Shown here: positions 1 to 39,657 of the stretch, piece by piece
How the letters are laid out: every line of letters starts with the position of its first letter
Position numbering within the stretch: the stretch's first letter is position 1
Source of the DNA: a virus
Virus record (IMG/VR): IMGVR_UViG_3300020049_009769
Span: 1-43,063 of that record
DNA length: 43,063 bases
Direction: 5' to 3' (one strand)
The notes under the pieces: generated by a model
Database searches by the model: none
Seen by the model: only the letters and a program-made list of their open reading frames with translations
What the model was told of the DNA's origin: nothing
Translations under genes and position numbers: made by a program

Positions 1-121
1 AAAGATACATTGATTACGGAGTTTGTTAAATGAGCTCAGATTGTTGTGATGGTTTTTTAACTGTTCTTTTTCTTATACTAATATTTGTATCAGTTAGACA
101 TACTTGCCATTATGTACATGA
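1..121. repeat. Terminal overlap, identical to 42943-43063 (circular closure of contig)
   Basis: Read directly: the same 121 nt (aaagatacattgattacgg...cattatgtacatga) occur at both window ends; the junction lies inside ORFs. Confidence 0.95.
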
Positions 122-173
122 TATTATGAAACATGTTGATAAAAATTTGCCAATTTCGGAGTTTGTTAGATGA
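30..173 (+). CDS. Small single-TM protein, 47 aa (holin/antiholin-class candidate); same gene as 42972-43063
   Basis: Hand translated: MSSDCCDGFLTVLFLILIFVSVRHTCHYVHDIMKHVDKNLPISEFVR. The ATG overlaps the upstream stop in GGAGTTTGTTAAATGA. Below the ORF-track size cutoff. Confidence 0.6.
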   Translation: MSSDCCDGFLTVLFLILIFVSVRHTCHYVHDIMKHVDKNLPISEFVR

Positions 174-325
174 GAATAGAAATAGTGAATATATCAAAGA
201 TAATAATGTATGCATGTTTATTGGGGGCTTTATTTGCAACAGCTAATAACATAAAAAATATAGCTGTAGATGTTCATAAATTTGTATCGGCGGTAACTAT
301 TGTTCAAAATGAAGAGGGTCAGTAA
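170..325 (+). CDS. Small single-TM protein, 51 aa (lysis-cassette member candidate)
   Basis: Hand translated: MRIEIVNISKIIMYACLLGALFATANNIKNIAVDVHKFVSAVTIVQNEEGQ. Start overlaps the upstream stop (GGAGTTTGTTAGATGA); its stop abuts the next ATG. Confidence 0.6.
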   Translation: MRIEIVNISKIIMYACLLGALFATANNIKNIAVDVHKFVSAVTIVQNEEGQ

Positions 326-580
326 ATGAATTATTTATTATTAAACTTGCTTGAGAAAATAGCCATTTCGATTGTTGCTATTGTTGGCTCTGTATTTGCA
401 TTGTCTGCACTTGCGTTTTGTTTTAGTGAGATTTACGAAGATAGAAAAGAAAAGAAAAAAGACAACAAAGAAAAAGCGCTTTTCTTTTTTAAAGAAGACA
501 ATGGCAATGTTTCAGGCAAATCTAATGAATCTAATGAGTCCATTTTAGAAACTGAGGTGCTTAATATATCAATTTCTTAA
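326..580 (+). CDS. Single-TM membrane protein, 84 aa; paralog of 34798-35016
   Basis: ORF track; hydrophobic segment IAISIVAIVGSVFALSALAFCF followed by a K/E-rich tail; shares MNY...KI.I.I..I.G....LSA.A..F.EIYE...FFF.ED with the 34798 ORF. Confidence 0.7.
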   Translation: MNYLLLNLLEKIAISIVAIVGSVFALSALAFCFSEIYEDRKEKKKDNKEKALFFFKEDNGNVSGKSNESNESILETEVLNISIS

Positions 581-620
581 TAACGAAGAGCTTAAACGTC
601 AGTTAAATTGTAGTAATAAT

Positions 621-654
621 GTTGGGAGACATGTTGGGAGACATGTAGGGTGAG
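621..654. repeat. Tandem 12-mer GTTGGGAGACAT x2 plus a degenerate third copy; left copy of the repeat flanking the HD gene
   Basis: Read directly: gttgggagacat gttgggagacat gtagggtgag; contains the GGGAG RBS and GTG start of the HD gene. Confidence 0.9.
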
Positions 655-1228
655 TAAAAAAATAGCAAAACTTCGTATTGCAGAATGCAGCGGATTGGCT
701 TTTATTGCCCATGGAGCAACAGGTCAAAAAAGAAAATATACCAATGAACCATATTACAATCATTGCAAAAATGTTTTTGAAATTTTAAAGATAAATTTAG
801 AAACAGATGACAAAAACTCTGAATCGATTATGCTTTGTTCCTGTTATCTGCATGACGTTTTAGAAGACACTCACTTAACAAGTAGTGATTTAATATGTGT
901 TGGAGTTCCTAGGCCAGTAGTTAAGGTCGTTATTGAATTAACTGACATTAGCAAGCCAGAAGATGGCAACCGAGAAGCCCGTAAAAAAATAGATAGAGAA
1001 AGATACGCAAGCGCTTCTTACGAAGCTAAAACCGTTAAATGCGCTGATCTAATTGATAATACATCAAGCATTGTTAAATATGACAAAGATTTTGCAAAAA
1101 TTTATTTACGAGAAAAAGAGCTTTTATTGCCTTATTTGCTAGGGGCGGACCAAAACTTGCATAATATGGCAGCGGCAACATTGGAAAAAGCCAAAAGAGA
1201 ATTAGGAATTAATTATGACCTTAGTTAA
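650..1228 (+). CDS. HD-domain small alarmone hydrolase (RelA/SpoT-hydrolase, Mesh1/SAH-like)
   Basis: GTG start. Motifs AHGATGQKRKYTNEPYYNHCKNV, CYLHDVLEDT and KCADLIDNTSS match the (p)ppGpp hydrolase HD signature. No synthetase domain (192 aa). Confidence 0.8.
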   Translation: MSKKIAKLRIAECSGLAFIAHGATGQKRKYTNEPYYNHCKNVFEILKINLETDDKNSESIMLCSCYLHDVLEDTHLTSSDLICVGVPRPVVKVVIELTDISKPEDGNREARKKIDRERYASASYEAKTVKCADLIDNTSSIVKYDKDFAKIYLREKELLLPYLLGADQNLHNMAAATLEKAKRELGINYDLS

Positions 1229-1229
1229 G

Positions 1230-1248
1230 GTTGGGAGGCATGTAGGGT
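1230..1248. repeat. Right copy of the 19-bp direct repeat GTTGGGAG[A/G]CATGTAGGGT (left copy 633-651)
   Basis: 18/19 identical to 633-651; begins 2 nt after the HD gene stop codon. Confidence 0.9.
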
Positions 1249-1363
1249 AATGGGCAGATTTTTGGGTTAATAAATGAAAAAACATAAACCGCCCACATTA
1301 AGAGAAAAGGCTAACTAATCTTACACTTTTTATTTCCGCCTTTCATTCCTTTGCTGTCTTTTT

Positions 1364-1537
1364 TCATTGGCATATTTTTTTTCCTTTCTCACCTCGTTGT
1401 TGCTGTTTAATATTTCTAGCTATTTTTTTAAGTTGTTTAAATTCTGATTGCTTAATCATTATTCCTTCAAATCCAAAAATAGCTATCGTTTGTCTTTCAA
1501 GAAATTTTGCAAATACTCGTTTTTCACTATTGGTCAT
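1364..1537 (-). CDS. Hypothetical small protein, 57 aa
   Basis: Hand translated: MTNSEKRVFAKFLERQTIAIFGFEGIMIKQSEFKQLKKIARNIKQQQRGEKGKKICQ. The ATG directly follows the upstream TAA. Last ORF of the minus-strand block. Confidence 0.45.
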   Translation of the reverse strand: MTNSEKRVFAKFLERQTIAIFGFEGIMIKQSEFKQLKKIARNIKQQQRGEKGKKICQ

Positions 1538-1669
1538 TTATTTTTTTTTAGATTTTCCAGCGACTGACATAGCAATTGCTATTGCCTGTTTTTCAGGCTT
1601 TCCCGCATGCCTTTCAGTGGCTATATTTTCTGAAATAACTTTTTTAGATTTACCTTTTTTAAGGGGCAT
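1538..1669 (-). CDS. Small basic protein ([10 protein letters not shown]...[17 protein letters not shown])
   Basis: Internal Met of track ORF 1538-1747, chosen because the longer form overlaps the 1659-1874 membrane ORF by ~90 nt. KxAIAIAxSxAGK-type small basic proteins recur in phages. Confidence 0.45.
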
Positions 1670-1874
1670 TTTTCTCATTCTCTTGTTTATTTTTAAAACC
1701 AAAGTAAGCATTAAAGACGTCTTTAACAATGCCAAATAATCCCCCAAGGATAATAGCTAGCACACGTGCCGTATCGTCAGGAACGTCTACAAAACATAAT
1801 ACCAAAATTATAACAAATAAACCAACAAACGAAAGTATCGCTAAAATATGTGGCATCGCAATTTTTAATTTCAT
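1659..1874 (-). CDS. Two-TM small membrane protein, 71 aa
   Basis: ORF track; hydrophobic stretches [19 protein letters not shown] and [13 protein letters not shown]; follows the tail fibre cluster. Confidence 0.65.
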
Positions 1875-1879
1875 TAAAA

Positions 1880-2353
1880 TTAGCGTCTTCTTCTTGCGTA
1901 AATAGTGCCAAAACCAGTAACAGAGCCACCGGAAAAATTAATCCCTACGTTTAAATAATAGGTAGTGGTTGCGCTTAAAGATGCCCTGCGGGCTTCAATA
2001 GAAAATGTATAAGGTTGATTGTACAAAACCCCATTTATCGGCAATGCGCTAATAGCTGTATTGGCATCAAATGAGGCGCCTGAAGTTGTATTTATATCGC
2101 CCGAAATAAGGGTTGCATTTACGCCCGTTGACGGAATGATGCCGCCCTTTGCCCACACATCCCAATCGCCAGCGGTTAAAGAAATACTTGTGACGGCCGC
2201 CGGAATTGTGGATGTTAAAGAAAGAGGGCTGGCAGTGCTTCTTGAAGCGGTTACAAACTCCCCGACATATCCAGCGTCAGCATTATTATTAGTAGTAGTT
2301 CCAACAATTCCATTGCTTTGTATATTGTTAGAAACTTTAATTGAAATAGCCAT
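1880..2353 (-). CDS. Tail-fibre-cluster protein, 157 aa (S/T/N/G-rich, beta-rich)
   Basis: ORF track; position and composition like the neighbouring fibre genes; ends in RRRR. Confidence 0.65.
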   Translation of the reverse strand: MAISIKVSNNIQSNGIVGTTTNNNADAGYVGEFVTASRSTASPLSLTSTIPAAVTSISLTAGDWDVWAKGGIIPSTGVNATLISGDINTTSGASFDANTAISALPINGVLYNQPYTFSIEARRASLSATTTYYLNVGINFSGGSVTGFGTIYARRRR

Positions 2354-2374
2354 AAGTTATTCCTTTAAAAATAT

Positions 2375-3193
2375 TCACGTTGGTAATTCATACATAGTTA
2401 CATAAGCGCACTGTGTATAGTCATCGGTTGTGCTATAACTGCTGTCAAGCTGAATAGTTGTTCCGGCTGTTGTAAGGCAGGTATTAACTCTTATTGCGTC
2501 ATTTGTCCAAACACCGTCACCGGTATCATTATTCGAAACATTTCTTGTGACTAAATTTGCACTGCTTGGTGAACCTGCTGGCGGTACAAGGTAGGTGTTA
2601 TAAGTAACAGATCCCCCGCTATTTTGAAATGTGTAACCAGCGCCAGGGCTTAACAATCCGCAACCATCAACGCGAGGATCACCTGTACCGCTAATATAAG
2701 CCATGGTATCAGCTGGTAATGTATAAAGGGTGGCTGTTGAGCTAAAGTCCGTTGTTAAATAGGTCGTGCCCGGGTAATTTTCAGGAATTAAAGTAATTTG
2801 AACCATAAACTGGAAGATTATAGGCTGAGAAACATCCCCGCTAATACAGTCAAGCGCTATCACATCTCCGGGATTGAAAATATAAGGTGGTGAGAATGCC
2901 GCCGTGCCTGCTACAGAGCTACTATAAAAAGATAAACGATAGTAAATACCGCTTACATCAATACACACATACCATTTAATAGCATTTGATAATGCATCTT
3001 GAAATATTGATATGCCCGATATAATCGCTTTATAGCCAGCGGGTACAGTATAAAAACCATAAGGGAAAGGGGGGTTCGATAAAATTGCAATATGTTCTAT
3101 TTTTTGAATTATTTGATACTGAGAGCCCGCCGCATACAATCCGCTAATATTATATGAACTTAACGGACTAAAATTTATTGAATTTTGATACAT
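2375..3193 (-). CDS. Tail-distal paralog 3 of 3 (receptor-binding candidate), 272 aa
   Basis: Shares N-terminal YQNS...GPL/GLY...YTVPAGYKAIISGISI with 3193-3951 and 3958-4722. Confidence 0.75.
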   Translation of the reverse strand: MYQNSINFSPLSSYNISGLYAAGSQYQIIQKIEHIAILSNPPFPYGFYTVPAGYKAIISGISIFQDALSNAIKWYVCIDVSGIYYRLSFYSSSVAGTAAFSPPYIFNPGDVIALDCISGDVSQPIIFQFMVQITLIPENYPGTTYLTTDFSSTATLYTLPADTMAYISGTGDPRVDGCGLLSPGAGYTFQNSGGSVTYNTYLVPPAGSPSSANLVTRNVSNNDTGDGVWTNDAIRVNTCLTTAGTTIQLDSSYSTTDDYTQCAYVTMYELPT

Positions 3194-3951
3194 TATACGT
3201 CTACCTCTAATAAATTAACCCAAGAAAAAGATTGGAAAAATGGAAAGGTTCCAATATCGATACCATCGCCTGCGGTTGTTAAATTAAAGGTGTTAAAAAA
3301 TGAATTTACATCAATTGTTTTAGCAGAAACATTATGACTATTAAGTGTATAATTAGTCGCCCCTACTGAATCATGCCAAGAAGTGGTGCAAGTATAAGCG
3401 CCCGTATCTTCATTTGTAAAAGCCACAGTTGGAATATAAGGAGAAAAAGGTGGCATTGCATTTAAAAAAACGGCTTTTTTTCCTGCCGGTAATCTATAAA
3501 GCGTACTTGAATGCGCGGAATAGGTATAGACACAGGTAATCGGATAAATCCTTGGAATTAATATACCGCATATTCTAACATTAACGTCGACTGACTGTGT
3601 GCTGTCGTAGCCTAAAATGTCCCCTTCATCAAGCACCATTCCTATAGGGAAATTATGCCTATCTTCAGGTGCTATAGAATATTCATAGGGTGTTATAAAA
3701 TGGAATACACTATCGACTTGATAAAGATAATATATCGTGGCGCCCTGTGTAGTAGAATTTGACCTATTTAATATAGAAATATTACTGATAAGTGCTTTAT
3801 AACCCGTTGGCACTGTATATAGATCGTGTGGGGCTTGATCACTATAATTTGTTACCTGATTAATAACTTCTATCTTTTCGCCCAAAATAAGCGGCCCATA
3901 CACAAAAGAATTATAAGGGGAAACATCACTATTGGTTTGATAAGCAGCCAT
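3193..3951 (-). CDS. Tail-distal paralog 2 of 3, 252 aa
   Basis: MAAYQTNS...YGPLILG...LYTVPTGYKALISNISI; same length class and motif order as its two neighbours. Confidence 0.75.
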   Translation of the reverse strand: MAAYQTNSDVSPYNSFVYGPLILGEKIEVINQVTNYSDQAPHDLYTVPTGYKALISNISILNRSNSTTQGATIYYLYQVDSVFHFITPYEYSIAPEDRHNFPIGMVLDEGDILGYDSTQSVDVNVRICGILIPRIYPITCVYTYSAHSSTLYRLPAGKKAVFLNAMPPFSPYIPTVAFTNEDTGAYTCTTSWHDSVGATNYTLNSHNVSAKTIDVNSFFNTFNLTTAGDGIDIGTFPFFQSFSWVNLLEVDV

Positions 3952-3957
3952 CTTTTG

Positions 3958-4722
3958 TTACACTCCTATTTCTAACAACACTTGCCAAGCTATTTGCGGC
4001 GTTGAGCTTGAAGAAGATGATATTTGTAACGTATCACCCGCTGTGTCCATATTGAACGCAAAAACATTTCTTGTACTAAACCCATCAGTTAACCCATAGT
4101 TAATAATTGTTTGATTAGTGCTTACAGGAGTATCACCATTTGCCACGCCCCACAAATTATAACTACAAGCACCAGCTCCAATATTACAAATTGCCATACT
4201 TCCGCCGGTCGGATTGAAAGGAAAAAATGATTCACATAAAACGACTTTTGTATTTGCTTGGCATGTGTATAACACATCTTGCGTACCACTACCTGTAAAG
4301 GTTGTTAATTTAGGGGCTTTTAAAGGATATTTATCTAAATATTCAACAATGCAAGGCATCACATTCATTGTCACGTTTGTACTTAAATTTATTTTAAAGA
4401 TTTCTCCTGCTTCAAAAATATAATCGATAGCTAATGTAATATTCTGATTTGCTGAGATGGTAGTTACAGGCGATATAGGATAATCAACACCGGAAATTGT
4501 AACTAGAAAATTTACATCACAAGATGAGCCGCTTTGATTGCATATTCCCACGCCTGAAATAATCGCCCTATTTCCACTTGAAACAGTATGTAAGGTATGA
4601 TTACCGGTCGTTGTTATATTAGTAAGGTTTTCGAAAAAAAATAAATCTTTTCTTGGGATAAGCAACGGCCCTAAAGACACGCTTTGCATAGGTGGCGTAT
4701 TGCTGCTGTTTTGATAAATCAT
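3958..4722 (-). CDS. Tail-distal paralog 1 of 3, 254 aa
   Basis: MIYQNSSNT...LGPLLIP...LHTVSSGNRAIISGVGI; paralogous to the two downstream genes. Confidence 0.75.
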   Translation of the reverse strand: MIYQNSSNTPPMQSVSLGPLLIPRKDLFFFENLTNITTTGNHTLHTVSSGNRAIISGVGICNQSGSSCDVNFLVTISGVDYPISPVTTISANQNITLAIDYIFEAGEIFKINLSTNVTMNVMPCIVEYLDKYPLKAPKLTTFTGSGTQDVLYTCQANTKVVLCESFFPFNPTGGSMAICNIGAGACSYNLWGVANGDTPVSTNQTIINYGLTDGFSTRNVFAFNMDTAGDTLQISSSSSSTPQIAWQVLLEIGV

Positions 4723-4730
4723 AATTCACC

Positions 4731-5195
4731 TTAATTTAATTGGACATTACCAACGCAATTTATAACTTCCCATGTGGTATTAGCAACAATACCCATTAAT
4801 GTTATTCTACATTGCAAATCTACTGTTGTAATGTTGCCTGTGGTCGTAGTGGTTGTTAACCCCAGAAATTTAATGTTGACGCCGCTACCGTAATCGATAA
4901 TTAAACCGCCAGCGCCAACGCTAACACAATCAATAATATCACCTACTGCAAAAGTAGCGGGCAATGTTCCTGTTGACTGGGCTGCATTAGTAAAAATATA
5001 GCCATTGTGAACAGCCATGCTTTGAGTAGTGCCCGTAACATTTGTATAAGTAAAACCACCTGAGCTTAATACCCAGGTTGGCGCTGAGCCAGCACCATTT
5101 GATTTTAAAAAATACCCACTCGTGCCAGAACTACCATTCACTATTAGGTCTTCAGTGAAGCTTACAGAGCCAGTTACTTGAATCGCTTTAGTCAT
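4731..5195 (-). CDS. Short tail fibre-like protein, 154 aa
   Basis: Carries GTSGYFLKSNGAGSAPTW, the same fibre motif as GTSGYVLTSQGAGTYPVW in the 859-aa protein. Confidence 0.7.
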   Translation of the reverse strand: MTKAIQVTGSVSFTEDLIVNGSSGTSGYFLKSNGAGSAPTWVLSSGGFTYTNVTGTTQSMAVHNGYIFTNAAQSTGTLPATFAVGDIIDCVSVGAGGLIIDYGSGVNIKFLGLTTTTTTGNITTVDLQCRITLMGIVANTTWEVINCVGNVQLN

Positions 5196-5205
5196 TTTTT
5201 ATTCC

Positions 5206-7785
5206 TTAATAAGGTATGTTAGCCGCTAATTGTGTTGCCGTTCCACTATCCGTTAATGTATTATAAAAACATCCAGTAAATATATTACTTGCAGCGCCAC
5301 TTTGAATATCGATCGTATTACTACCCCCCGCATTTCCAAACTTACATTGCCCAAAAGTATTATAATCACTTTGTATAGTTACTGTGGTAGTCGTGGAACC
5401 ATCCCAGAACTGACAGTTCGTGAATTGGTAACCGCTGGCAGTTAAGGTTTGCGCTGAGCTTGTAAAAGTTACATTTGTAGCTTTTACACTTGTCGTTACT
5501 GCTGAATCTGTAAAAGAATTTAACGTTCCATTAGAGATTTTCCAATTCCGCCCATTAACAAAATCAATGTATCCAGTTCCTAAATTAAAATTGTTCAAAG
5601 TAACATTATCACCTGTAAGGTAAAGGACACCACTAAATATTTTATTAATATTACTAATTCGGCAAGTATCAGAGCGGATTAAAAAGCTACCTGTTGTATT
5701 AATATCAAGGTTTGAAACGCTAAAGTTACGTAAATAAAAATTCGGTTTTGTATTATCAAAAGAATTAAATTGACCTTGAACATGTAAATTAGTGATAGAC
5801 CCATTTGTTATAGATGATGGTGTTCCGAGGACTGTTTCACAAGAGGTGCCCCCGCCGTACATATAATCTTGATCACTATAAACATGATTAGTATTAAAGC
5901 CACAGTTATTTTGATTAGCAAAATAATATATATTATTCGTCGAATACAATGAGCTATTCGTAGAGCCTAAGGGCCCAGAATCAAACATATAACAATCTGT
6001 TACAGAAGATGAATTTGAGATATAGGAATTTTGTACGTTAAAATAAAAGGCGCTGCTGCCATCTAAGATACCTACAAAAGATTTAGCACTCGAATAAGCA
6101 AAAGTAATGTATGCCCTATTCAATACACAATTGACACGGGCTACATTTGTCATCTGAAAAGGTGAATAAGTGCCCGCGCTATAAAAGTAATAATTTGGAT
6201 TATAAATAAAAATATTTGCTGAGATACCATTAAATGTAAAATCCGCTGTTTCCACTATATTACTAATTTGTAATAAATTATAAGCACCGGCCGCAAATGC
6301 TGCTGACCATGTGGCGTAATCACCCCCAACCCCGACGGTCTTAATATTACCGACAGGCGCGGTACCCGTTGCACTAAGCGTAGTACCTGACATACTTATT
6401 CCACTGCCTAATGTAATAGCCGCTAAATTACCCGTCGAGCCACGACCAAAAAGCTGACTTGCTGATAAGGCTACCGTAGAATAGTTAGCTGCGCTTGCTG
6501 TAGGATTACAAAGCACAACGTTGCCTGCCGCTGCTTGCTGAAATTTTGCGTATGTAACTGCATTATTTGCAATGGTAGTGGCGTTAGAGTCCGCAGACGC
6601 CGTTACATCCCCGGTTAATGCAGCTCTAAATAAAGTGCTCGTACCAAAAGCCAAACTATTGCCGGCACCTAATTTAATATCGCCAAGATTGCTAGATGTA
6701 CCGCGCCCCACTAGGCTATTCGCTGTAACATTTATGCCTGTATAGTTTGCTATCCCACCAGAAACGCCTAGAAACACATTGCCTGCTGCTGGTTGCTGAA
6801 ATTTGGCATAAGTCACCTTGTTAGTACCTATCGTAGGATTAGGATAGGTTCCAGTTAAATCACCCCCCGCTGCACCGCTAGGTGGAGGCGCCGCTGACCA
6901 AACCGGATAAGTACCAGCGCCTTGACTTGTTAATACATAACCCGAAGTACCGGCGTCATTATTAGGTCTAAAGGCACCAAAAATATTTGTATTTTTGCTT
7001 GCGTCTAAATTCATGACTTCTTGCATAGTACCGGCAGCATCAGCCGTGTCAAATTCCAATCGACCAGAAACAACGCTCCCTGGGGTTATTGTATTTCCTG
7101 CTAACCCAAAAATTTGAGCCGCTTGTCTATAGTTAGTGCCGTCGTAACCAAGAAATTCTACAAGACCTAATTCATCATTCGTTTGTACGATAGTGGGCGA
7201 CGCTATAGTTCCTCGAGATTTTGCATAAATCAGGGAGGGCGCGGTATCATTATCCGCAGAATATGACGCTAAAAAATTGGCATCATATTGCGTACCTTCA
7301 CGAGGCGTACTAAACATCACGTGGGTGCCTGCAAACGATGTTAATAATGAGCCTACAGAAACGTTGTTATTACCGTTGGTTTCATTAACAAATAAACCAT
7401 TTACGCCTAGACGTGTATAACCTTTTGTAGCGCTTGTGGTTGATGAAAGCAATAAATTCTCTGATGCCCCATTACCGCCAACTAAAGTTGTTCCACCTGC
7501 TTGGCCGTCAGCGGTAGCAATGTATTGCAACAATACTTTTTGACTTGAATTGACATATAAATAGCTCGGGGTGATACGTAACCAACGCCCAGGGCCAGTT
7601 GTTGGGTCAACAACGTTTAAGTCATCGCCTGTCGCGACAGAGGCTGAGCTAAATTCAAATAGACCAAAACCAAAGACTCGGGCTATTACCGAGTTTTGTA
7701 ACGGGGTTGTATCAAGCGCCTTCAATGCCGCCAAGTCTGCAAATGGTTCAGCGATAACCCATTCTCTTAGTATTCTAGTTGCCAT
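5206..7785 (-). CDS. Tailspike/tail fibre, 859 aa: internal ~86-aa tandem repeat plus an N/S/T-rich C-terminal beta-helix-like domain
   Basis: VTYAKFQQ[PA]AAGNV..L...NY....S.L.GRG....L..I.LG.G.S occurs twice. The C-terminal half has short N/T/S-rich periodic segments typical of parallel beta-helix depolymerases. Confidence 0.7.
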   Translation of the reverse strand: MATRILREWVIAEPFADLAALKALDTTPLQNSVIARVFGFGLFEFSSASVATGDDLNVVDPTTGPGRWLRITPSYLYVNSSQKVLLQYIATADGQAGGTTLVGGNGASENLLLSSTTSATKGYTRLGVNGLFVNETNGNNNVSVGSLLTSFAGTHVMFSTPREGTQYDANFLASYSADNDTAPSLIYAKSRGTIASPTIVQTNDELGLVEFLGYDGTNYRQAAQIFGLAGNTITPGSVVSGRLEFDTADAAGTMQEVMNLDASKNTNIFGAFRPNNDAGTSGYVLTSQGAGTYPVWSAAPPPSGAAGGDLTGTYPNPTIGTNKVTYAKFQQPAAGNVFLGVSGGIANYTGINVTANSLVGRGTSSNLGDIKLGAGNSLAFGTSTLFRAALTGDVTASADSNATTIANNAVTYAKFQQAAAGNVVLCNPTASAANYSTVALSASQLFGRGSTGNLAAITLGSGISMSGTTLSATGTAPVGNIKTVGVGGDYATWSAAFAAGAYNLLQISNIVETADFTFNGISANIFIYNPNYYFYSAGTYSPFQMTNVARVNCVLNRAYITFAYSSAKSFVGILDGSSAFYFNVQNSYISNSSSVTDCYMFDSGPLGSTNSSLYSTNNIYYFANQNNCGFNTNHVYSDQDYMYGGGTSCETVLGTPSSITNGSITNLHVQGQFNSFDNTKPNFYLRNFSVSNLDINTTGSFLIRSDTCRISNINKIFSGVLYLTGDNVTLNNFNLGTGYIDFVNGRNWKISNGTLNSFTDSAVTTSVKATNVTFTSSAQTLTASGYQFTNCQFWDGSTTTTVTIQSDYNTFGQCKFGNAGGSNTIDIQSGAASNIFTGCFYNTLTDSGTATQLAANIPY

Positions 7786-7796
7786 TTCTTAAATCC

Positions 7797-7976
7797 TCAT
7801 GCGTAACCGTACGGATCCCCATTGGGGGCTTCATAAACATCTAAATTAGGAGCTACATAAAAGCTCCCAATCGGGGGCGGTAAAACACCGCTGCTAAAAT
7901 TACCTCTATCGTTATACGGCGAGTTTACAATCGGCGTAGTTTGTATAGGATGGTCTATCGTTAATGCGTTTTTCAT
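7797..7976 (-). CDS. Hypothetical small protein, 59 aa (P/G/Y-rich)
   Basis: Hand translated: MKNALTIDHPIQTTPIVNSPYNDRGNFSSGVLPPPIGSFYVAPNLDVYEAPNGDPYGYA. Its ATG overlaps the upstream TAA and it fills an otherwise empty gap. Confidence 0.5.
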   Translation of the reverse strand: MKNALTIDHPIQTTPIVNSPYNDRGNFSSGVLPPPIGSFYVAPNLDVYEAPNGDPYGYA

Positions 7977-8332
7977 TAGTTAATGTAATCCTGTGCTACA
8001 TACCAAATAATCCCAACGTACGCACCGGCTGCGTCAGGCGTAAATAAACTAATTGTTTCGCCAGGCTGGAAGAGGCGGCATGACGGGTTTAGCTCAGATG
8101 TTACCGCACCAATCGTTCCCGTAAATGCAGCGGCCGTTGTAATATTATCGACGAATACATTTGCGCCGGGGGTATAACTAAAGATTGCTGCAAATCGCGG
8201 GTACCCCGTAGGAACTGTTACGCTTTGCGCAACGCCTGTCGCTAATAAAACACCTGTTTTTTGGTCTGTAGTAATAAGCCCAAAACCGTTATAACCGGCG
8301 ACATCTTTTGTTAAATTAAACTTTGTTGACAT
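7976..8332 (-). CDS. Virion/tail-associated protein, 118 aa
   Basis: ORF track; sits between two fibre genes and is tightly packed. Confidence 0.65.
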   Translation of the reverse strand: MSTKFNLTKDVAGYNGFGLITTDQKTGVLLATGVAQSVTVPTGYPRFAAIFSYTPGANVFVDNITTAAAFTGTIGAVTSELNPSCRLFQPGETISLFTPDAAGAYVGIIWYVAQDYIN

Positions 8333-8341
8333 AATAAATCC

Positions 8342-10723
8342 TTAATATTTGATTACCCATTGAACAGAAAAATTAAAAGGCCTAGGTTCGCTTTGGCCTG
8401 AGTAGCCGGTTATACCCGCCGCATCGGCGCCTACATTTACCGTCGTACCTGAAGTGCCTACAGTTTCAAAACCCTCGTTACTACCATGCGCATGCTGTAA
8501 ATTTGCATAGGTTTGATAGCTGCCGATATCTTCGATATATTGAGAAAGAAGCGAGTATTTAGCTAAAGAAGATTGATCGCCTAACGTGTCTAAAGAGCCT
8601 AAATCAACACCACGTAAAAATGCGCCGTTAAGATTTGGCACTGCATATTGATAACCATTAATAGCAATTTTTGTTTTTGTTACGATTTGTGCCGCGGTTT
8701 CTGTGCCGTCGATATCAACTTGAATTACACGCGTAAACGCGCCCGCTGGAGCAGTGCCAGCGCCTGCTTTTTTATACCAAACAGCATTTTGCACGCCGTT
8801 AGTGTAGAACGTAAACCAAGCTCCTGCGGGTATAGCAGAGCCTGCAACCGTAGTGATTTGCGTTACATTGCAGCCAGCAATAACATCGCGCATAACGCCG
8901 ATTGCTTCTTGTATTGTGTAGGTAGAAAGTAACGGGCATAGAATGCCGGTGCCCCCAGGCGCGGGGTCTGCGCCTGCGCCATTAATCGTAAACCACATGT
9001 AATAATTTGTAGCCGTGTTTCGAAAAGTAAAATAGGTTCCGGCAGCCGGTAAGCTGGATATTTCAACCGTGAATTCATAGGACGCGCCCGGTGCATTTAC
9101 TTCTTCCGCTAATGAAAGACCAGACGTTCCCGCGCTTAAACCTGTTATAACCCCGGCGGTTTTACAATAGCAAATTAAAACCGTATTCATGGCATTAGGG
9201 TAAGCGAAATAATCATAAGCCGTGGTTCCGGCTTTTGATGTTGCAATAGTGAAAGTTGGCGATGTAGCACCATTGGCTGTCGCAGTTTGTAAACCGGCTT
9301 TATTCGTCGTTAATCTAAATTGATTTGTCGGATTTGCGTATGTATAAACAGTACCAAAAGAATTACCGGTACCGTAAAGCGGTAAATAATCCGCTAGGTC
9401 AAAAATCTTTGTCCATAACCTGGCGTAAGGTATGCCTAGAGGAGAATAATCCGTTGTTTTTAATTCTGTGCCATCGCATAAAATCTCGTTACTTACGACG
9501 CTTAAGCTATTTACGAAACCGCCGGAATAGGCTTGGCCGTAGATTTTTCCAATAACAGAACTATCAAATATTGCGCCTTCTAATGTGTAAACAACAGGTA
9601 GATATAAATCGCTACCATTAGGATTTGGTATCGGCATAGAGCCCAAAATACCTTGCGCCTTTACAATCGTTTGTGGCTGTGGTGGATAAAATGTAACGGT
9701 TTCTGTACCTTGAAATAACATAAAATCGGTTAACTGAACATCGAAAGAGCTTTCAGGGCTTCTTAATGAAATTTGAACATAATCGTCATTATTGGTACCA
9801 AGTGTTCCTGTGTTGCCATCAAAGCCAGGAATTTGGATTGTTTTATAGGCGTAAGTAGGTGTTATAGATATCGTGCCTAAACTCACTGGATTAGAAATTG
9901 ATGGTGAACCACCGGTGCCAAAATTGTAAGTTATAAATACTTCGAAAGTATAGGTGGTTGCATTGTTACTTTCTGCTGCGAACACGAAAGTGTAAGGTTG
10001 TGAGCCAACAGGATCGCCGCCTGAAAAAGTATTAACACCTTCAAACTGAATGGCTATGTCATGTACTTGGTCATCAGAAACAAAGTTTGTACATTTAAAA
10101 TTAAATCCGTAGCGTGGATAATCATTTAAACTACCGATACCCGTTGTAATACGCTCGAATGAATTATCAAAAGTGGAAGTCCCACCGACAGAGCGTATAA
10201 AAAACCAGCCGCCTTGAGCGATGGGTTGCAATAAGGAAGTTCCATCGTTGAGAGGGGGCGGCTGTAAAGTAGAGATAATGTCATTATGCACCACGAATTG
10301 GCCGTTAGCAATAAAGTTTCGATTGTCTAAACCGGTAGCATCCCCGCCGCCATCACCCATCGGTGGCCAATTTTCACGAGTAAATTGCGAGACAGCGCCA
10401 GAGCTTTTAACGTCAATATAATATTTCTCAACTACACTGCTATTTTCTTCTGGCAATCCTTCGTAAGGATAATAATAAGGTACGATGTTATTACCTAACG
10501 CATCTTGAAATGTACCTACGGCGGATAATGTACAAGGGTTAGGTAAGGGCGCCCAGTTGTATGCGCCTGGTGAGCCCGTTAATTGATAAACTGCTTTTTT
10601 TTGTGTCCTGTTATTATCTTCATAAAAAGTTACAACACCAGCCGCTAAGGGCGCGCCAGTAATCTTGTTAACAAAATAACTTTCTAAATCCGATGTAACG
10701 ATAAACTTTGTTTCATCAACCAT
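8342..10723 (-). CDS. Tail fibre protein with a C-terminal phage tail-collar domain, 793 aa
   Basis: C-terminus VPNLNGAFLRG...LQHAHG...SEPRPFNFSVQWVIKY matches the tail-collar signature (PDLRGxF...H.H...RP.N..). Confidence 0.75.
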   Translation of the reverse strand: MVDETKFIVTSDLESYFVNKITGAPLAAGVVTFYEDNNRTQKKAVYQLTGSPGAYNWAPLPNPCTLSAVGTFQDALGNNIVPYYYPYEGLPEENSSVVEKYYIDVKSSGAVSQFTRENWPPMGDGGGDATGLDNRNFIANGQFVVHNDIISTLQPPPLNDGTSLLQPIAQGGWFFIRSVGGTSTFDNSFERITTGIGSLNDYPRYGFNFKCTNFVSDDQVHDIAIQFEGVNTFSGGDPVGSQPYTFVFAAESNNATTYTFEVFITYNFGTGGSPSISNPVSLGTISITPTYAYKTIQIPGFDGNTGTLGTNNDDYVQISLRSPESSFDVQLTDFMLFQGTETVTFYPPQPQTIVKAQGILGSMPIPNPNGSDLYLPVVYTLEGAIFDSSVIGKIYGQAYSGGFVNSLSVVSNEILCDGTELKTTDYSPLGIPYARLWTKIFDLADYLPLYGTGNSFGTVYTYANPTNQFRLTTNKAGLQTATANGATSPTFTIATSKAGTTAYDYFAYPNAMNTVLICYCKTAGVITGLSAGTSGLSLAEEVNAPGASYEFTVEISSLPAAGTYFTFRNTATNYYMWFTINGAGADPAPGGTGILCPLLSTYTIQEAIGVMRDVIAGCNVTQITTVAGSAIPAGAWFTFYTNGVQNAVWYKKAGAGTAPAGAFTRVIQVDIDGTETAAQIVTKTKIAINGYQYAVPNLNGAFLRGVDLGSLDTLGDQSSLAKYSLLSQYIEDIGSYQTYANLQHAHGSNEGFETVGTSGTTVNVGADAAGITGYSGQSEPRPFNFSVQWVIKY

Positions 10724-29338: not shown

Positions 29339-29379
29339 ACTTTGTAACTATTTATAAATGACTTTGTAACTATTTATAA
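29339..29379. repeat. Two 19-bp direct repeats ACTTTGTAACTATTTATAA, 22-bp period (operator/UP-like)
   Basis: Identical copies at 29339-29357 and 29361-29379; the second ends 17 bp upstream of the early -35. Confidence 0.85.
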
Positions 29380-30668: not shown

Positions 30669-31040
30669 ATGTACGCACACGAAATACTAAAAAATTTATT
30701 TGATGGATATAAATTAAGACACAAAAGCTGGGCAAAAAATGAATTTATTTGTTATGAAAATAATAATATTTATTTATGCAAAAGCTTTTTAAGTAAAGCA
30801 GATAGAGAGTATTTTCAAATATGGGAATTTTTATCAGGCTACGGCTCTAATATAAGCATAAATTACGCAATGGAAATTGTAGAGCCCACAGTACAAAATG
30901 AGGCGATCGGTTTAATTGCCGAATGGAAAGAATATTGCGAATCTTATTTAGGGTTTTCGAACCCTCAGGTTTTGCAGGGTGTATTACAATCTATTTACGA
31001 GTCTTTTGAAAATTTTTTAAAAAAAGCAAGTGAGGAATGA
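30669..31040 (+). CDS. DUF2829 (Tad2-like) paralog 1, 123 aa
   Basis: HEILKNLFDGYKLRHKSWAKNEFICY...FQIWEFL. Confidence 0.6.
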   Translation: MYAHEILKNLFDGYKLRHKSWAKNEFICYENNNIYLCKSFLSKADREYFQIWEFLSGYGSNISINYAMEIVEPTVQNEAIGLIAEWKEYCESYLGFSNPQVLQGVLQSIYESFENFLKKASEE

Positions 31041-31043
31041 AAA

Positions 31044-31505
31044 ATGAAACTTAAGTTAATTACAAATTTAATATCAGATGCAACACGTTTTCGTCGAGCG
31101 TCCTGGGAGCCTGGGTTATATATAAACATAAAAAATATAAACGACCCTACATTTTTAGATGCGTCAGAAGTAGATGCTGATGACTGGGAATTTTTCATCG
31201 ATGATAATTTATTTTCTAAAAAAATCGAATTAAAACGGGATGTACCGCGTTATCATATTAACCGTAAGCCTGCATTTTTCAATGATTGCGATTTTAACGT
31301 GTTTAACATGCCCTTTGAGCGCTCGACAACGCCCTCACCGGTCGATAGCAGCGACGAAGAGGAAGAATGGTGTATGATTGCTAAACCAGTAAAGCTCATA
31401 AACGTAAAAGAAGACCGAAAACAACGCGCTTCGTTTTTTGCTCAGAACACAAATAGAGATGAAGTTTTTGACGCAGAATGGCCAATTAAGAGGTTAAAAA
31501 AATGA
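31044..31505 (+). CDS. DUF2829 (Tad2-like) paralog 2, 153 aa
   Basis: LITNLISDATRFRRASWEPGLYINI...DADDWEFF. Confidence 0.65.
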   Translation: MKLKLITNLISDATRFRRASWEPGLYINIKNINDPTFLDASEVDADDWEFFIDDNLFSKKIELKRDVPRYHINRKPAFFNDCDFNVFNMPFERSTTPSPVDSSDEEEEWCMIAKPVKLINVKEDRKQRASFFAQNTNRDEVFDAEWPIKRLKK

Positions 31506-31843
31506 GTGAATATTTATATTTGAATGATATTAATACTGAAGAAATGGCAATTGATTATTTGCTATGTGAAATTCATACCAACCCAAAATGTAAATTAGTT
31601 ATTGAAGATAATGACATTTGCTTACATACTCAAATTCAAAAATTTATATACAAAATTTTAAATGAAATAAAAACTTCAATAGGTGAAGTTATTGTTGATG
31701 AGGATAAATGGTGGGAAGAAAACGAAGATAGAAATTATATTGAAAATAAAAAAACTATTTTTTATATCTTTTACGGTTTGCTAAGTTCCAAAAACATTAG
31801 AAAAATATTAAGATTATGTCATGAGGAGGGGTTAATTAAATGA
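31502..31843 (+). CDS. Hypothetical protein, 113 aa, interrupting the DUF2829 array
   Basis: ORF track; ATGA-type overlaps on both sides; no DUF2829 motif. Confidence 0.65.
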   Translation: MSEYLYLNDINTEEMAIDYLLCEIHTNPKCKLVIEDNDICLHTQIQKFIYKILNEIKTSIGEVIVDEDKWWEENEDRNYIENKKTIFYIFYGLLSSKNIRKILRLCHEEGLIK

Positions 31844-32172
31844 AACTCAAAGACTTAAAAACTTTTGTTAACCCTTGCGGCAAAATACGCCGTGCATGTT
31901 GGCAACAACATTTATACTTAAATGCATTAGAAATGAATAATGAAAGGTATCTATCTTATCAGGATAGGCATGCAGAAGATTGGGAAATATTTGTCGAACA
32001 AGATTTACGCGAAGGCATCCCGATTCCAAGACGTAGAATGATAGACCAGCATATTCCTGAAAGGTTTTTTTCTAATCATGAATTTTTGAGAAGAACCAAT
32101 AGACCAAATTATGAGGCGTTAAGAATTTTAGATGAAATCGATTTTTTAATTAAGAACCCGAAAGGAAAATGA
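31840..32172 (+). CDS. DUF2829 (Tad2-like) paralog 3, 110 aa
   Basis: LKTFVNPCGKIRRACWQQHLYLNA...HAEDWEIF. Confidence 0.65.
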   Translation: MKLKDLKTFVNPCGKIRRACWQQHLYLNALEMNNERYLSYQDRHAEDWEIFVEQDLREGIPIPRRRMIDQHIPERFFSNHEFLRRTNRPNYEALRILDEIDFLIKNPKGK

Positions 32173-32173
32173 A

Positions 32174-32539
32174 ATGAAACCAATTGAAATATTGCAAGCA
32201 TTAAAAGATGGTAAGAAAGTAAGAGGCAAAAATTGGGAAAAAGGTTATTTTATTTACCTTAAAGATGGATTAGTGGTTGAAAAAGACAATGACCGTTTTG
32301 ATATTTATCGATACATACATAATGAAATTAATTACAATGACTGTAGCCTAGAGCCAAATTTAAACTTTGAAATCTATGAAGATTGCGAAGATAAAACGAT
32401 TTTATTAATCAAAAATTTAAAATATATTTCTGATTCCGCCATTAATGAAAATAAAAATTTTTTCCATTATCAAATGATGGAAAATGTATTGCATGAAATT
32501 TCAAAAATATGTGAACAATTTTTAAAGGAAAAACAATAA
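32174..32539 (+). CDS. DUF2829 (Tad2-like) paralog 4, 121 aa
   Basis: MKPIEILQALKDGKKVRGKNWEKGYFIYLKDG is the closest match to the family consensus (..EAlkaLkeGkkvrRkgW...). Confidence 0.75.
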   Translation: MKPIEILQALKDGKKVRGKNWEKGYFIYLKDGLVVEKDNDRFDIYRYIHNEINYNDCSLEPNLNFEIYEDCEDKTILLIKNLKYISDSAINENKNFFHYQMMENVLHEISKICEQFLKEKQ

Positions 32540-33024
32540 TGAAACTAAGTGAAGCAATTCAAGCATTAAACGATGGCAAAATGCTCAAAAATATTTACTG
32601 GGCAAAAGAGGATTTTATTTATTTAAAAGATGGGGTTGTTTATGACCATAAAAACCATCAATTTGATTTTTGGAATTTCATAGGCCATAATTATGGCGCT
32701 TCTTGCGCTCTTGATTTATATATTAATTTCACACTTTACGAGCCACCCTACACAATCGACGATGCTTTTAATGACTTGAAAGAAATTTATGCTAAATATA
32801 AATATCAATATGACTATACCAGCGCTAAAATATATATAATAAAAATACATCATATTCATAATCAAGAGCTTTATATAGAGCCTGATAATTGGCCTATGGG
32901 AACCTATGGCACGTGGTCTCTTTTTCCTTTGTTTACCACATATGCAGATTGCGAAAAAGCCATAGAAGAAATCGGAAAAGACAAAATACTAAAAATCGCT
33001 AAAACTTTAAAGGGGATCAAATAA
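32539..33024 (+). CDS. DUF2829 (Tad2-like) paralog 5, 161 aa with a C-terminal extension
   Basis: MKLSEAIQALNDGKMLKNIYWAKEDFIYLKDGVVY...FDFWNFI. Confidence 0.7.
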   Translation: MKLSEAIQALNDGKMLKNIYWAKEDFIYLKDGVVYDHKNHQFDFWNFIGHNYGASCALDLYINFTLYEPPYTIDDAFNDLKEIYAKYKYQYDYTSAKIYIIKIHHIHNQELYIEPDNWPMGTYGTWSLFPLFTTYADCEKAIEEIGKDKILKIAKTLKGIK

Positions 33025-34797: not shown

Positions 34798-35016
34798 ATG
34801 AATTATTCAATATTTGAAGCGCTTGCAAAAATAAGCATAGCCATAACTTTTATTACTGGGGCAATTTTAATTTTATCTGCTATTGCAAAAGGATTCATAG
34901 AAATATATGAAAATCTATGCAAGAATAAAGTAAATGAAAAAAAATTTTATTTTTTTGCCGAAGATAAGAAAACACCCCAAAGCCCAGAAAGTGAAATTAG
35001 CATCTTAAGTTTGTAG
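34798..35016 (+). CDS. Single-TM membrane protein, 72 aa; paralog of 326-580
   Basis: MNYSIFEALAKISIAITFITGAILILSAIAKGFIEIYEN...FYFFAED. AGGAAGATTTACAAAATG cassette. Confidence 0.7.
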   Translation: MNYSIFEALAKISIAITFITGAILILSAIAKGFIEIYENLCKNKVNEKKFYFFAEDKKTPQSPESEISILSL

Positions 35017-36985: not shown

Positions 36986-37252
36986 TTAATGCGAAAGCTG
37001 ACTCTCTGCTTGTTTTTTTGCAAGCTCTCGTCGGCTGTTAAGAATTGTCCACATACCCTCTTGGCTTATCTGACCTTTCAAAAAATCGCCTAATGCTCGT
37101 ATGCAATGTTTCCCGATTTCAAACTCAACAACTTTGGCTTGCTCAGCTTCTGACAATGTCGTCGAACCGGGGAATTTTTCTTTCAAACTTTCCTCGAATT
37201 TCCGCTGTTCTTGGTCAAATAAAAAATCATCTTTTTTCCATGGATTGCTCAT
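36986..37252 (-). CDS. Hypothetical protein, 88 aa, translationally coupled to the replication initiator
   Basis: ORF track; 4-nt overlap with the rep stop; occupies the position of a helicase-loader/accessory gene but is much smaller. Confidence 0.6.
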   Translation of the reverse strand: MSNPWKKDDFLFDQEQRKFEESLKEKFPGSTTLSEAEQAKVVEFEIGKHCIRALGDFLKGQISQEGMWTILNSRRELAKKQAESQLSH

Positions 37253-38373
37253 TTTAACACCTCTCTTATCTTTTTGATTGTTTCTTGTGCAACTTCAGAT
37301 TGTCCCGAGTTTTTAACGCAGTGCACAAATACGTTTAAAAACGGATTAGAAGGATCTGTCTCAATCCTCCTATCTACCCGGTAGGTATGTCTACCCCCTT
37401 CCTCGATATCCTCTCCTTGCCTGGTATTCTTTTGCTTCCGTGGCTCTTCGAGGCTGATTCCTGACTTGTTATGCAGCTTATCCATGAAATGTTGTTCGCA
37501 AAGGCATTTATTGTATAAATTATAAACTTTTCCAAGTTCTTTACAGTCTGGATGAGTGCATCGCCCATCGAATTTTGGTTTTTCTTCTGTCACGTCGGGT
37601 TCCCAATCGCCTTTATTTGCACATTTTATAATCACGTTCAATTTTTTAGCAAAATCGCCGTGGCAAAACTTGAATTGCTCGGGGTCTTGAATGGATTTTG
37701 CTATGCCATGAAGTATAGCAGTTTTCGAATGAGTTTGCAGGACAGTGAGGGATTTTGTTTTTAAAACTATCAGGTCGGCTTGTAGCTTAGTGAGTCCGTA
37801 TTGTTCCCATGGGTGGTCATTGCTCGGTGTTAATTCAGGGCACAGGGGTTGGGGCTCAGTCCCCCCGTCTTCGTCTTGCAAAGCGAAAGCGGCAGCAGCA
37901 GGGGCGTCCGCGAAAGCGGGCGACCTCTCTTCTTCTCGGATCTTCTCTATCTGTATATATTGTAAAAGGGTACTCCCCTCCGAGGGAGTGTTTCTACTCC
38001 CCTCCGAGGGAGTGTTTCTACTCCCCGGGAGGGGAGTACCCTTGCGAGGGAGTACCCTTGTTCCTGTGGATAACTTTAACCATGATTTTGTATCATAATT
38101 TATGCTATATAAAAATTGATTATTATGTGGTATTCGAATTATCATGTTTCTTTGAATTAGTTTTTTTATGATATCGGGGGAGTGTTTAGTTTTTATTTCA
38201 GTAAGTCTTTCGAAGGTCTTGAGGGATATAATTGCTTCGTCTTTAAAACATCCGATCGTTTCTGCGACGATGGTTTGGAATATTTTATTTTCCTCACCTG
38301 TTAAATCCCATCTACAAATTGTTCTTAGAATATCCATTGAATATTTAGCGAAAGGAGTAGCTAACTTTGACAT
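37249..38373 (-). CDS. Replication initiator, lambda O-like N-terminal domain, 374 aa
   Basis: LTGEENKIFQTIVAETIGCFKDEAIISLKTFERLTEIKTKHSPDIIKKLIQRNMII parallels lambda O LTKRQFKVLLAILRKTYGWNKPMDRITDSQLSEITKLPVKRCNEAKLELVRMNII. Iterons lie inside the gene. Confidence 0.75.
   Translation of the reverse strand: MSKLATPFAKYSMDILRTICRWDLTGEENKIFQTIVAETIGCFKDEAIISLKTFERLTEIKTKHSPDIIKKLIQRNMIIRIPHNNQFLYSINYDTKSWLKLSTGTRVLPRKGTPLPGSRNTPSEGSRNTPSEGSTLLQYIQIEKIREEERSPAFADAPAAAAFALQDEDGGTEPQPLCPELTPSNDHPWEQYGLTKLQADLIVLKTKSLTVLQTHSKTAILHGIAKSIQDPEQFKFCHGDFAKKLNVIIKCANKGDWEPDVTEEKPKFDGRCTHPDCKELGKVYNLYNKCLCEQHFMDKLHNKSGISLEEPRKQKNTRQGEDIEEGGRHTYRVDRRIETDPSNPFLNVFVHCVKNSGQSEVAQETIKKIREVLK
37966..38060. 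repeat. Origin iterons inside the rep gene
   Basis: Identical 24-mers TACTCCCCTCCGAGGGAGTGTTTC at 37971-37994 and 37995-38018, then TACTCCCCGGGAGGGGAGTACCCT and TGCGAGGGAGTACCCTTG. Each is built on an ACTCCC/GGGAGT dyad. Confidence 0.8.
38061..38170. other. AT-rich tract adjacent to the iterons (candidate DNA-unwinding element)
   Basis: Read directly: ttcctgtggataactttaaccatgattttgtatcataatttatgctatataaaaattgattattatg... A further GGGAGTGTTT lies at 38178-38187. Confidence 0.6.
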
Positions 38374-38842: not shown

Positions 38843-38871
38843 TTGACAAAAGTATTGTAGTCAATTATACT
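38843..38871 (+). promoter_or_regulatory. Promoter TTGACA-N17-TATACT for the replication/recombination/lysis operon
   Basis: Read directly; same architecture as the early promoter at 29397. Confidence 0.75.
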
Positions 38872-38883
38872 CTCAAATGTCAA
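38854..38883 (-). promoter_or_regulatory. Divergent overlapping promoter TTGACA-N18-TACAAT for the Zn-ribbon gene
   Basis: Reverse complement reads ttgaca tttgagagtataattgac tacaat; its -10 lies inside the spacer of the plus-strand promoter. Confidence 0.6.
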
Positions 38884-39530: not shown

Positions 39531-39657
39531 ACGAAAAATGGCCACACCGATTCGCCGGCAAAAAAATATAGAAAGAATTTTCAACAAAACAAATTTTTTT
39601 GCTGGTGCTTTTATTTTTGGTTTTTGGTTGGGTTTATGGGTAGGTAAAGTATTATGA
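39523..39657 (+). CDS. Small membrane protein, 44 aa
   Basis: Hand translated: MFKRKMATPIRRQKNIERIFNKTNFFAGAFIFGFWLGLWVGKVL. ATGA overlap with the ATPase gene. Confidence 0.5.
   Translation: MFKRKMATPIRRQKNIERIFNKTNFFAGAFIFGFWLGLWVGKVL

Follow-up and report, generated by a model that had tools for sequence, protein, structure and literature searches.

Does a gene that is flanked at both ends by the same short sequence owe its place in a phage genome to that sequence? The question is raised by the window analysed here, a 43,063-nt stretch of viral DNA (IMG/VR record IMGVR_UViG_3300020049_009769, positions 1 to 43,063). In this window, an open reading frame (ORF) at 650-1228 of the plus strand, encoding a small alarmone hydrolase (SAH), is bracketed by two nearly identical 19-bp direct repeats. 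A preliminary description of the sequence had read this arrangement as the footprint of a moron-type cassette, gained or losable by recombination between the repeats, at the end of a lysis operon. We examined the enzyme, its relatives, the repeats and their surroundings, and consider it reasonably probable that the locus consists of a phage SAH with a duplicated junction of Shine-Dalgarno (SD) sequence and start codon, the right copy of which is a leftover.

Identification of a stand-alone alarmone hydrolase

The ORF at 650-1228 (192 aa, GTG start, TAA stop at 1226-1228) is the final plus-strand gene before a convergent structural operon, and its product, with a Mesh1/PaSpo-like HD domain, carries GQKRKYTNEPYYNH, LHDVLEDT and KCADLIDN. 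Sequence searches against the PDB matched the protein to Drosophila Mesh1 (3nqw, E 1.3e-9) and Lmo0812 (4e-7) and, lower down, to human MESH1, a (p)ppApp hydrolase, and the SpoT and Rel hydrolase domains. It also matched phrog_990, annotated as 'metal-dependent phosphohydrolase' (2e-30), and TIGR00691, in this case over the hydrolase part only. No synthetase domain is present and the hydrolase is a single-domain protein. In total, 769 homologues were found, most of them with PF13328, which appears in the precomputed annotation of 119/119 among the matches listed (the window's own protein excluded), and homologues are present in 165 GenBank phage records.

In a 46-sequence alignment, R28, H38, H68, D69, E72, D133 and N137 were invariant and D73 nearly so, being kept in at least 90% of the 46 homologues. 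The invariant residues align with the corresponding residues of Mesh1, and we take their roles, in Mn2+ binding and in catalysis, to be those known from Mesh1 and RelSeq. The AlphaFold2 model built from this alignment (mean pLDDT 96) showed the hydrolase fold over residues 3-184, and the top 43 matches of the model in a Foldseek search of the PDB were all Mesh1, SAH, Rel, SpoT or Lmo0812 structures (Foldseek probability 1.0). The best of these were Mesh1, RelH and the P. aeruginosa SAH, and the highest TM-scores were 0.75-0.84. Mesh1/HDDC3 and the bacterial SAHs (3nqw, 3nr1, 5vxa, 7qod for RelH and 6yvc for the P. aeruginosa SAH) have the same single-domain fold as the window protein (TM-scores 0.70-0.84) and share with it the R28 region, H38, H68-D69, E72-D73, D133 and N137. 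They differ from it in being cellular proteins with 19-27% identity, and Mesh1 also acts on NADPH.

ORF 650-1228 thus encodes a stand-alone RelA/SpoT-type HD hydrolase with the full set of catalytic residues, as had been proposed from its motifs; the database matches, the conserved residues, the model and the structural search agree on this, and the gene family, fold and catalytic residues can be regarded as established. The product very probably destroys bacterial alarm nucleotides. No gene for a small alarmone synthetase (SAS) adjoins it, as a gene for an 84-aa membrane protein lies upstream and non-coding DNA downstream, and PADLOC gave no match for the hydrolase.

Relatives of the hydrolase

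By sequence comparison, the closest characterised relative is PaSpo (SSU5_099) of Salmonella phage SSU5, which aligned over its full length with 41-42% identity (E 1e-22). Both are stand-alone phage HD hydrolases and share GQKRKYT.E.Y.NH, LHDV.EDTHVT, EDGNR, KxADL.DNTSSIV and YL.EKE. SSU5_099, on the other hand, is 213 aa long with a longer C-terminal insertion and lies in another genomic context, with no flanking repeats reported there. In type IV pairs of toxic SAS (toxSAS) and SAH, such as FaRel-ATfaRel, the hydrolase chemistry is the same, whereas the window gene has no SAS gene beside it.

The ability of alarmone hydrolases to neutralise toxic synthetases, which the preliminary description had invoked, is experimentally known for phage SAHs (PMC7229694, PMC11245113). 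Jimmy et al. studied the stand-alone SAHs of two phages, PVP-SE1 and SSU5; both neutralise all toxSAS that were tried, and the authors proposed that phages bypass alarmone-based defence using such hydrolases (PMC7229694). PaSpo also reverses the tRNA pyrophosphorylation by FaRel2, removing the tRNA 3'-pyrophosphate (PMC11245113), and serves as a routine means of restraining CapRel (PMC9712102). For PbcSpo of PVP-SE1, no annotated hydrolase gene was found within the first 50 kb of the record, the sole part looked at.

The nearest homologue (P0002), encoded on a 3,219-bp JGI contig, is 76% identical to the window protein. The identity is unevenly distributed, with 97% over residues 94-192 and about 57% over residues 1-93. 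Such a mosaic implies a recombination breakpoint inside the gene, and therefore exchange does occur in the SAH gene. Another homologue (P0007, at 6001-6570 of contig L137) is located 1.2 kb upstream of a Thg1-like (PF04446) gene (7789-8604); the contig is phage-like, with further genes for Erf, YqaJ, SSB and an integrase. The two genes may represent a pairing of tRNA-end repair functions.

Repeats at the two ends of the gene

Two exact tandem 12-mers, GTTGGGAGACAT, occupy 621-644 of the plus strand (621-632 and 633-644). Tandem Repeats Finder reported the array at 619-650 with a period of 12, 2.7 copies, 95% matches and a score of 57, which makes it the second-best tandem array of the window. 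The left 19-mer, GTTGGGAGACATGTAGGGT, lies at 633-651 and holds an SD sequence, GGGAG (636-640), together with the first two bases of the GTG at 650, which follows the SD by 9 nt. The right 19-mer, GTTGGGAGGCATGTAGGGT, lies at 1230-1248, is identical to the left copy at 18/19 positions and has a stronger SD, GGAGG; a single base, G1229, separates it from the TAA stop of the hydrolase gene. The exact 12-mer occurs in the genome only at 621, 633 and 1230, and a pattern search for the 19-mer with up to 3 mismatches returned only the known sites.

Similarity between the flanks of the two 19-mers is limited to a shared TAA-N directly to the left of each. Gapped alignments of the flanks did not differ from those of shuffled sequences (p = 0.6, 0.78 and 0.12), and we discarded the idea of extended homology around the repeats because these alignments were non-significant. 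The 19-mer similarity is thus a discrete element. The RNA structure of the flanks was not significant either (z = 0.12 and, for the 3' flank, 0.48), and the flanks had no match in Rfam.

The right copy is an orphan junction. Beyond it, only a 6-codon ORF (ATG at 1250) and a 14-codon ORF (ATG at 1274) are found before the convergent minus-strand genes. In both copies, the frame V-G-R-H-V-G-stop can be read (633-653 and 1230-1252) with its stop overlapping a start codon, as GTGA at 650-653 and as TAATG at 1248-1252. Read in this way, the element has the architecture of a translationally coupled junction, with no real ORF ending there now. The ATG of the 6-codon ORF (1250-1270, plus strand, MGRFLG*) overlaps the TAA stop of the V-G-R-H-V-G frame of the repeat, and this ORF is probably a vestige. 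A frameshift extension of the upstream ORF 326-580 through the repeats was also considered; it was rejected, as the paralogue of this ORF at 34798-35016 stops at the equivalent position. The preliminary description had therefore been accurate on the repeats themselves: the direct repeats, the tandem array by which the left copy supplies the ribosome-binding site (RBS) and GTG start, and the lack of a gene after the right copy beyond the two very short ORFs were all recovered, the first of them in the sequence itself, in the pattern search and against shuffled sequences.

Junction repeats elsewhere in the genome

In this genome, we counted 41 local direct repeats that are 15 nt or longer and differ at no more than one position, compared with 5.8 +/- 1.9 in Markov shuffles. 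The longest of them are the regions comprising SD, spacer and ATG of neighbouring genes (29468/29795, 30002/30308, 34201/34386/34570, 35693/35939 and 42687/42959/157). About 8 of the 39 plus-strand genes, the hydrolase gene included, are bracketed by near-identical SD/start junctions of 17-23 nt, and therefore the repeat around the SAH gene belongs to a generic class of junction repeats. The re-use of initiation regions, with junction repeats spread over the whole genome, is a habit of this phage. At the other seven bracketed genes, translation of the next gene starts from the right copy; the hydrolase gene alone has no such gene after it.

One sequence, CGGAGTTTGTTARATGA, is common to three consecutive junctions at 42687-42703, 42959-42975 (the same as 17-33) and 157-173. 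EFV(K/R) is the C-terminus of the protein encoded before each of them, and the stop codon of that protein's gene overlaps the ATG of the gene that follows.

These findings come close to a case that the preliminary description had set against its own proposal, namely that of a generic motif. The class of junction is common in the genome, but this particular 19-mer occurs only at the hydrolase gene.

Proposed function of the enzyme and history of the repeats

We infer the substrate and the infection role of the enzyme from its characterised relatives. The history of the repeats, too, is an inference. ORF 650-1228 would encode a presumably Mn2+-dependent 3'-pyrophosphohydrolase with the Mesh1 fold, closest to PaSpo of SSU5, translated from the GTG that follows the GGGAG within the duplicated 12-mer. 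It would act during infection, taking off the 3'-pyrophosphate of (p)ppGpp, of (p)ppApp or of both, and possibly that of tRNA CCA ends modified by toxSAS. The host would thereby be held out of the stringent response, or abortive infection by a toxSAS of the CapRel/FaRel type would be defused.

The right 19-mer would be a second copy of the SD/start junction of the hydrolase gene. Since the right copies at the other bracketed genes serve the next gene and none follows here, the copy at 1230-1248 is most simply taken as a leftover. It could once have initiated translation of a downstream gene that has since disappeared, or it could have arrived with the hydrolase gene from a donor in which another gene came next. 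The two 19-mers could still recombine and thus delete the gene; we found no sign that such a deletion occurred.

Some observations weigh against this combined explanation of enzyme and repeats. The hydrolase junction is G-rich and has a GTG start, whereas other junctions of the genome are A/T-rich with ATG, and no other gene carries its motif; the junction may therefore have a separate origin or function. The flank alignments detected no remnant of a lost downstream gene past the right copy. As to the enzyme, Mesh1 also hydrolyses NADPH, which leaves the physiological substrate less certain. The search with the Pfam HD_4 model (PF13328) that the preliminary description had suggested gave a divided result: a match was present (E 1.5e-5) and the catalytic residues were complete, but the score of 25.2 bits fell just below the gathering cut-off of 27.2 bits.

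Is the gene a mobile cassette?

A moron is an independent unit with its own promoter, its own terminator and a deviating composition. Simple consensus scans found no promoter-like site in 581-649 and no terminator-like site in 1229-1363. The GC content of the hydrolase gene is 34.2% (24.4% at third codon positions), that of the genome is 37.2%, and the other plus-strand genes range from 26 to 37%, so that its base composition is not deviant. Like the lambdoid morons, the hydrolase gene is an accessory gene at the end of an operon, beside candidate lysis genes, and SAH homologues occur in variable phage contexts; unlike them, it shows none of these three properties. Of the moron-type footprint proposed in the preliminary description, the direct repeats flush with the gene stand, while the features of an independent unit were not found in these simple scans and in the composition, and the repeats belong to a junction class that is general in this genome.

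The 19-mer was absent from IMG/VR. A degenerate 18-mer had 22 single hits in GTDB genomes of unrelated taxa, with about 70 expected by chance by our own estimate, and their flanks showed no similarity. In other loci, repeats of 12 nt or more lying no further than 50 nt from the two gene ends were found at 0/92 SAH genes; SAH genes in general are thus not flanked by flush repeats. When 300-nt flanks were included, one group of marine phage loci showed repeats of 19-21 nt around the SAH gene. These are part of a 65-70 nt composite promoter/RBS intergenic element ahead of successive genes, which brackets a two-gene unit of a 63-aa ORF and an SAH homologue. The element lies at 4575-4640 and 5308-5381 in L082 and is also found in the loci L021, L078, L081, L083, L085 and L086.

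By analogy, the marine arrangement resembles the PeSL cassettes, regulatory sequences that drive gene shuffling in T4-like phages through indels, swaps and mini-circles (Arbiol 2010, PMC2839356; Comeau 2014, PMC4122927). In PeSL cassettes, short repeated regulatory sequences flank non-essential genes; composite repeats of this kind bracket the SAH unit of the marine loci L081-L086, and the 19-mers of the window also flank an accessory gene. The PeSL sequences differ in comprising a sigma-70 promoter and a terminator stem-loop and in having many copies, whereas the window has a 19-nt SD/start junction without either, at one gene only.

Alternative explanations

The repeats might be the sites at which a mobile cassette of one gene recombines. 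Such a cassette could have entered a resident junction, for example in the form of a mini-circle with one junction copy, and could be excised again so as to leave one 19-mer behind. The repeats flush with the gene, the phage's own recombination genes (the AAA_24 match at 39654-40304, Gp157 and RusA), the mini-circles and indels that PeSL-type repeats yield in T4-like phages (PMC2839356, PMC4122927), the repeated 65-70 nt elements around the marine SAH unit, the quite different contexts of SAH homologues among other phages and the exchange within the gene seen in P0002 all speak for it. We nevertheless regard it as doubtful. IMG/VR yielded neither an empty site nor the motif at a second place, and the GTDB hits were at chance level with dissimilar flanks; the breakpoint in P0002 lies within the gene, away from the repeats; a resident junction should precede a resident gene, and nothing follows the right copy; and the 92 other SAH genes had no flush flanking repeat. 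A related idea is that the 19-mer is a portable translational-coupling linker, made up of the last six codons of one gene (V-G-R-H-V-G-stop), the SD of the next and the overlapping stop and start. To us this seems rather unlikely. If it were true, recombination between linkers would move single genes such as the hydrolase gene between otherwise unrelated phages with translation restored automatically, a non-T4 phage would have an equivalent of the PeSL mini-circles at the level of the RBS, and the CGGAGTTTGTTARATGA junctions in the same operon, with their EFV(K/R)-stop ends, would form another linker set.

If the two copies are functional cis-elements instead, they could bind a translational or transcriptional regulator, serve as ribosome standby sites or form start-stop (ATG-TAG) mini-ORFs by which translation of the SAH is tuned; the 3' copy would act on the end of the mRNA. 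Three phased GGG-containing 12-mers ahead of the start and one and a half past the stop would suit such a role, as would the ATG-TAG inside both copies and the V-G-R-H-V-G frame whose stop overlaps a start in each (GTGA and TAATG). We judge it improbable, since the motif is confined to the flanks of the hydrolase gene, the structure z-scores are low with no Rfam match, the spacing from SD to ATG is poor for the mini-ORFs and no candidate regulator was identified. Tandem duplication of the junction together with the hydrolase gene, followed by deletion of the second gene, would also leave a copy on the right, and arrays of paralogues that share initiation regions are common here (33024/33299, 34211/34396 and the Tad2-like array at 30669-33024). 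Past the right copy, however, the sequence resembles neither the start of the SAH gene nor anything after it, which makes this history quite improbable. A mere chance match is scarcely credible. One of 20 first-order Markov shuffles of the genome gave a local 19-nt repeat with at most one mismatch somewhere, so that length alone is not extreme, but 0/100 dinucleotide-preserving shuffles matched this motif, it is G-rich in a genome of 37% GC, one copy is also tandemly duplicated, and chance is implausible because the copies are flush with the start and stop of one gene.

For the enzyme, the alternative is an HD phosphohydrolase with a non-alarmone substrate, such as NADPH (as for Mesh1), PAPS or another nucleotide signal of a defence system. 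Human MESH1 bound to NADPH and to PAPS is among the best structural matches, an 'orphan' bacterial SAH is reported to be metabolically promiscuous (PMC9765508), and the sub-threshold Pfam score fits as well. It is unlikely in our view, given that PaSpo, the closest characterised relative, counters both alarmone- and tRNA-pyrophosphorylating toxSAS (PMC7229694) and that the complete residue set of the RelA/SpoT homologue hydrolases is conserved.

Significance of the locus

At the level of the gene, the claim of an alarmone hydrolase is sound but not new, because the phage SAHs of PVP-SE1 and SSU5 have already been characterised. Phage alarmone hydrolases are a plausible counter to the stringent response and to toxSAS-mediated (CapRel/FaRel) abortive infection. 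To our knowledge, this role has been demonstrated by co-expression only and not during infection. The window adds a divergent, well-modelled SAH, about 41% identical to PaSpo, from a lineage without close relatives, and its junction repeats are a small, concrete example of how short homologies of initiation regions may mark where phage operons gained or lost genes. As things stand, the locus offers a routine annotation plus an evolutionary footnote, which is unproven.

Genome organisation and the operon upstream of the hydrolase

The first 121 bases of the window (positions 1-121) are identical to its last 121, and it therefore represents a complete phage genome of about 42.9 kb, assembled as a circle. 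Structural and packaging genes, including those for the portal, the large terminase and a RusA-like resolvase, occupy the minus strand between 1364 and about 29.1 kb, with a tail-fibre C-terminal domain at 1880-2353 (minus). No tRNA genes were found in the genome.

To all appearances in sequence searches, close relatives of the phage are missing among sequenced genomes. Its portal protein shares no more than 23% identity with the P22-like portals of isolated phages, and blastn of positions 1-6000 against GenBank phages gave zero matches. Scans of IMG/VR and metagenomes based on the SAH returned only homologues of at most 52% identity. For the neighbouring protein at 42173-42703, no word-level homologues or viral loci were found, and a concatenate of eight neighbouring proteins retrieved only tail-fibre C-terminal domains with 34-49% identity among the best 8000 candidates scored, which may have masked closer neighbours. 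A search with the 859-aa tail protein led to four distant loci.

The operon that ends in the hydrolase gene is the second plus-strand unit, which begins near 39.1 kb, passes over the contig ends and finishes at 1228. It may start from a candidate sigma-70-like promoter at 38843-38871 of the plus strand (TTGACA-17-TATACT, 11/12 consensus positions). In the region between the O-like gene island and this operon, two near-consensus sigma-70-like promoters (11/12 each) stand back to back at 38843-38883. The label of lysis operon, given in the preliminary description, is weakly founded: a weakly lysozyme-like 176-aa protein and small membrane proteins are encoded upstream of the hydrolase gene, but the operon opens with recombination and replication genes, the first matching Pfam AAA_24 (39654-40304) and the next being a Gp157 gene.

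The 176-aa protein (42173-42703, plus strand; phrog_3108) is a candidate lysozyme- or transglycosylase-like protein with an invariant Glu43-Ser44 and a G..Q motif. An exhaustive search gave 1,055 remote homologues, the alignment of which keeps the invariant Glu-Ser and the G..Q motif, and 12/50 homologues had weak SLT or Phage_lysozyme2 hits. Goose lysozyme aligned with the family on the ES...G.MQ catalytic motif, weakly (E 1.5). Taken together, these sequence matches make a lysozyme identity suggestive but not established.

Between this protein and the hydrolase are encoded a 91-aa protein and three small proteins of 47, 51 and 84 aa (30-580, plus strand), each with a hydrophobic stretch as read by eye; the latter are holin- or spanin-like by size and hydrophobicity only. 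These genes, the one for the 176-aa protein included, had no Pfam match, no functionally annotated PHROGs match and no match to a known lysis family. The 84-aa membrane protein (ORF 326-580) has a 72-aa paralogue in the early region (34798-35016), and a dedicated lysis role is therefore not favoured.

A short minus-strand island contains the gene for an O-like replication initiator (37249-38373, minus). Within this gene, a perfect 24-nt tandem repeat, TACTCCCCTCCGAGGGAGTGTTTC, is present in 2.3 copies at 37971-38026, each copy holding an internal inverted repeat; by analogy with lambda O, these are probably origin iterons. In the divergent intergenic region from which the operons of both strands depart, two copies of a 19-nt direct repeat, ACTTTGTAACTATTTATAA, stand 22 nt from each other (29339-29379); the repeat is a candidate operator or promoter element.

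The early region (plus strand, 29.5-36.9 kb) is rich in small genes and tandem paralogues, with pairs at 33024/33299 and 34211/34396. It also includes an array of paralogous small proteins (30669-33024) with a Tad2-like (PF11195, DUF2829) N-terminal domain. The ORF at 32174-32539 scored 25.1 bits against a cut-off of 25, and the ORFs starting at 30669 and 32539 scored weakly. Going by these domain matches, the array holds candidate anti-Thoeris or nucleotide-sponge genes, and its presence in the same genome as the SAH suggests an accessory repertoire against nucleotide-based defences.

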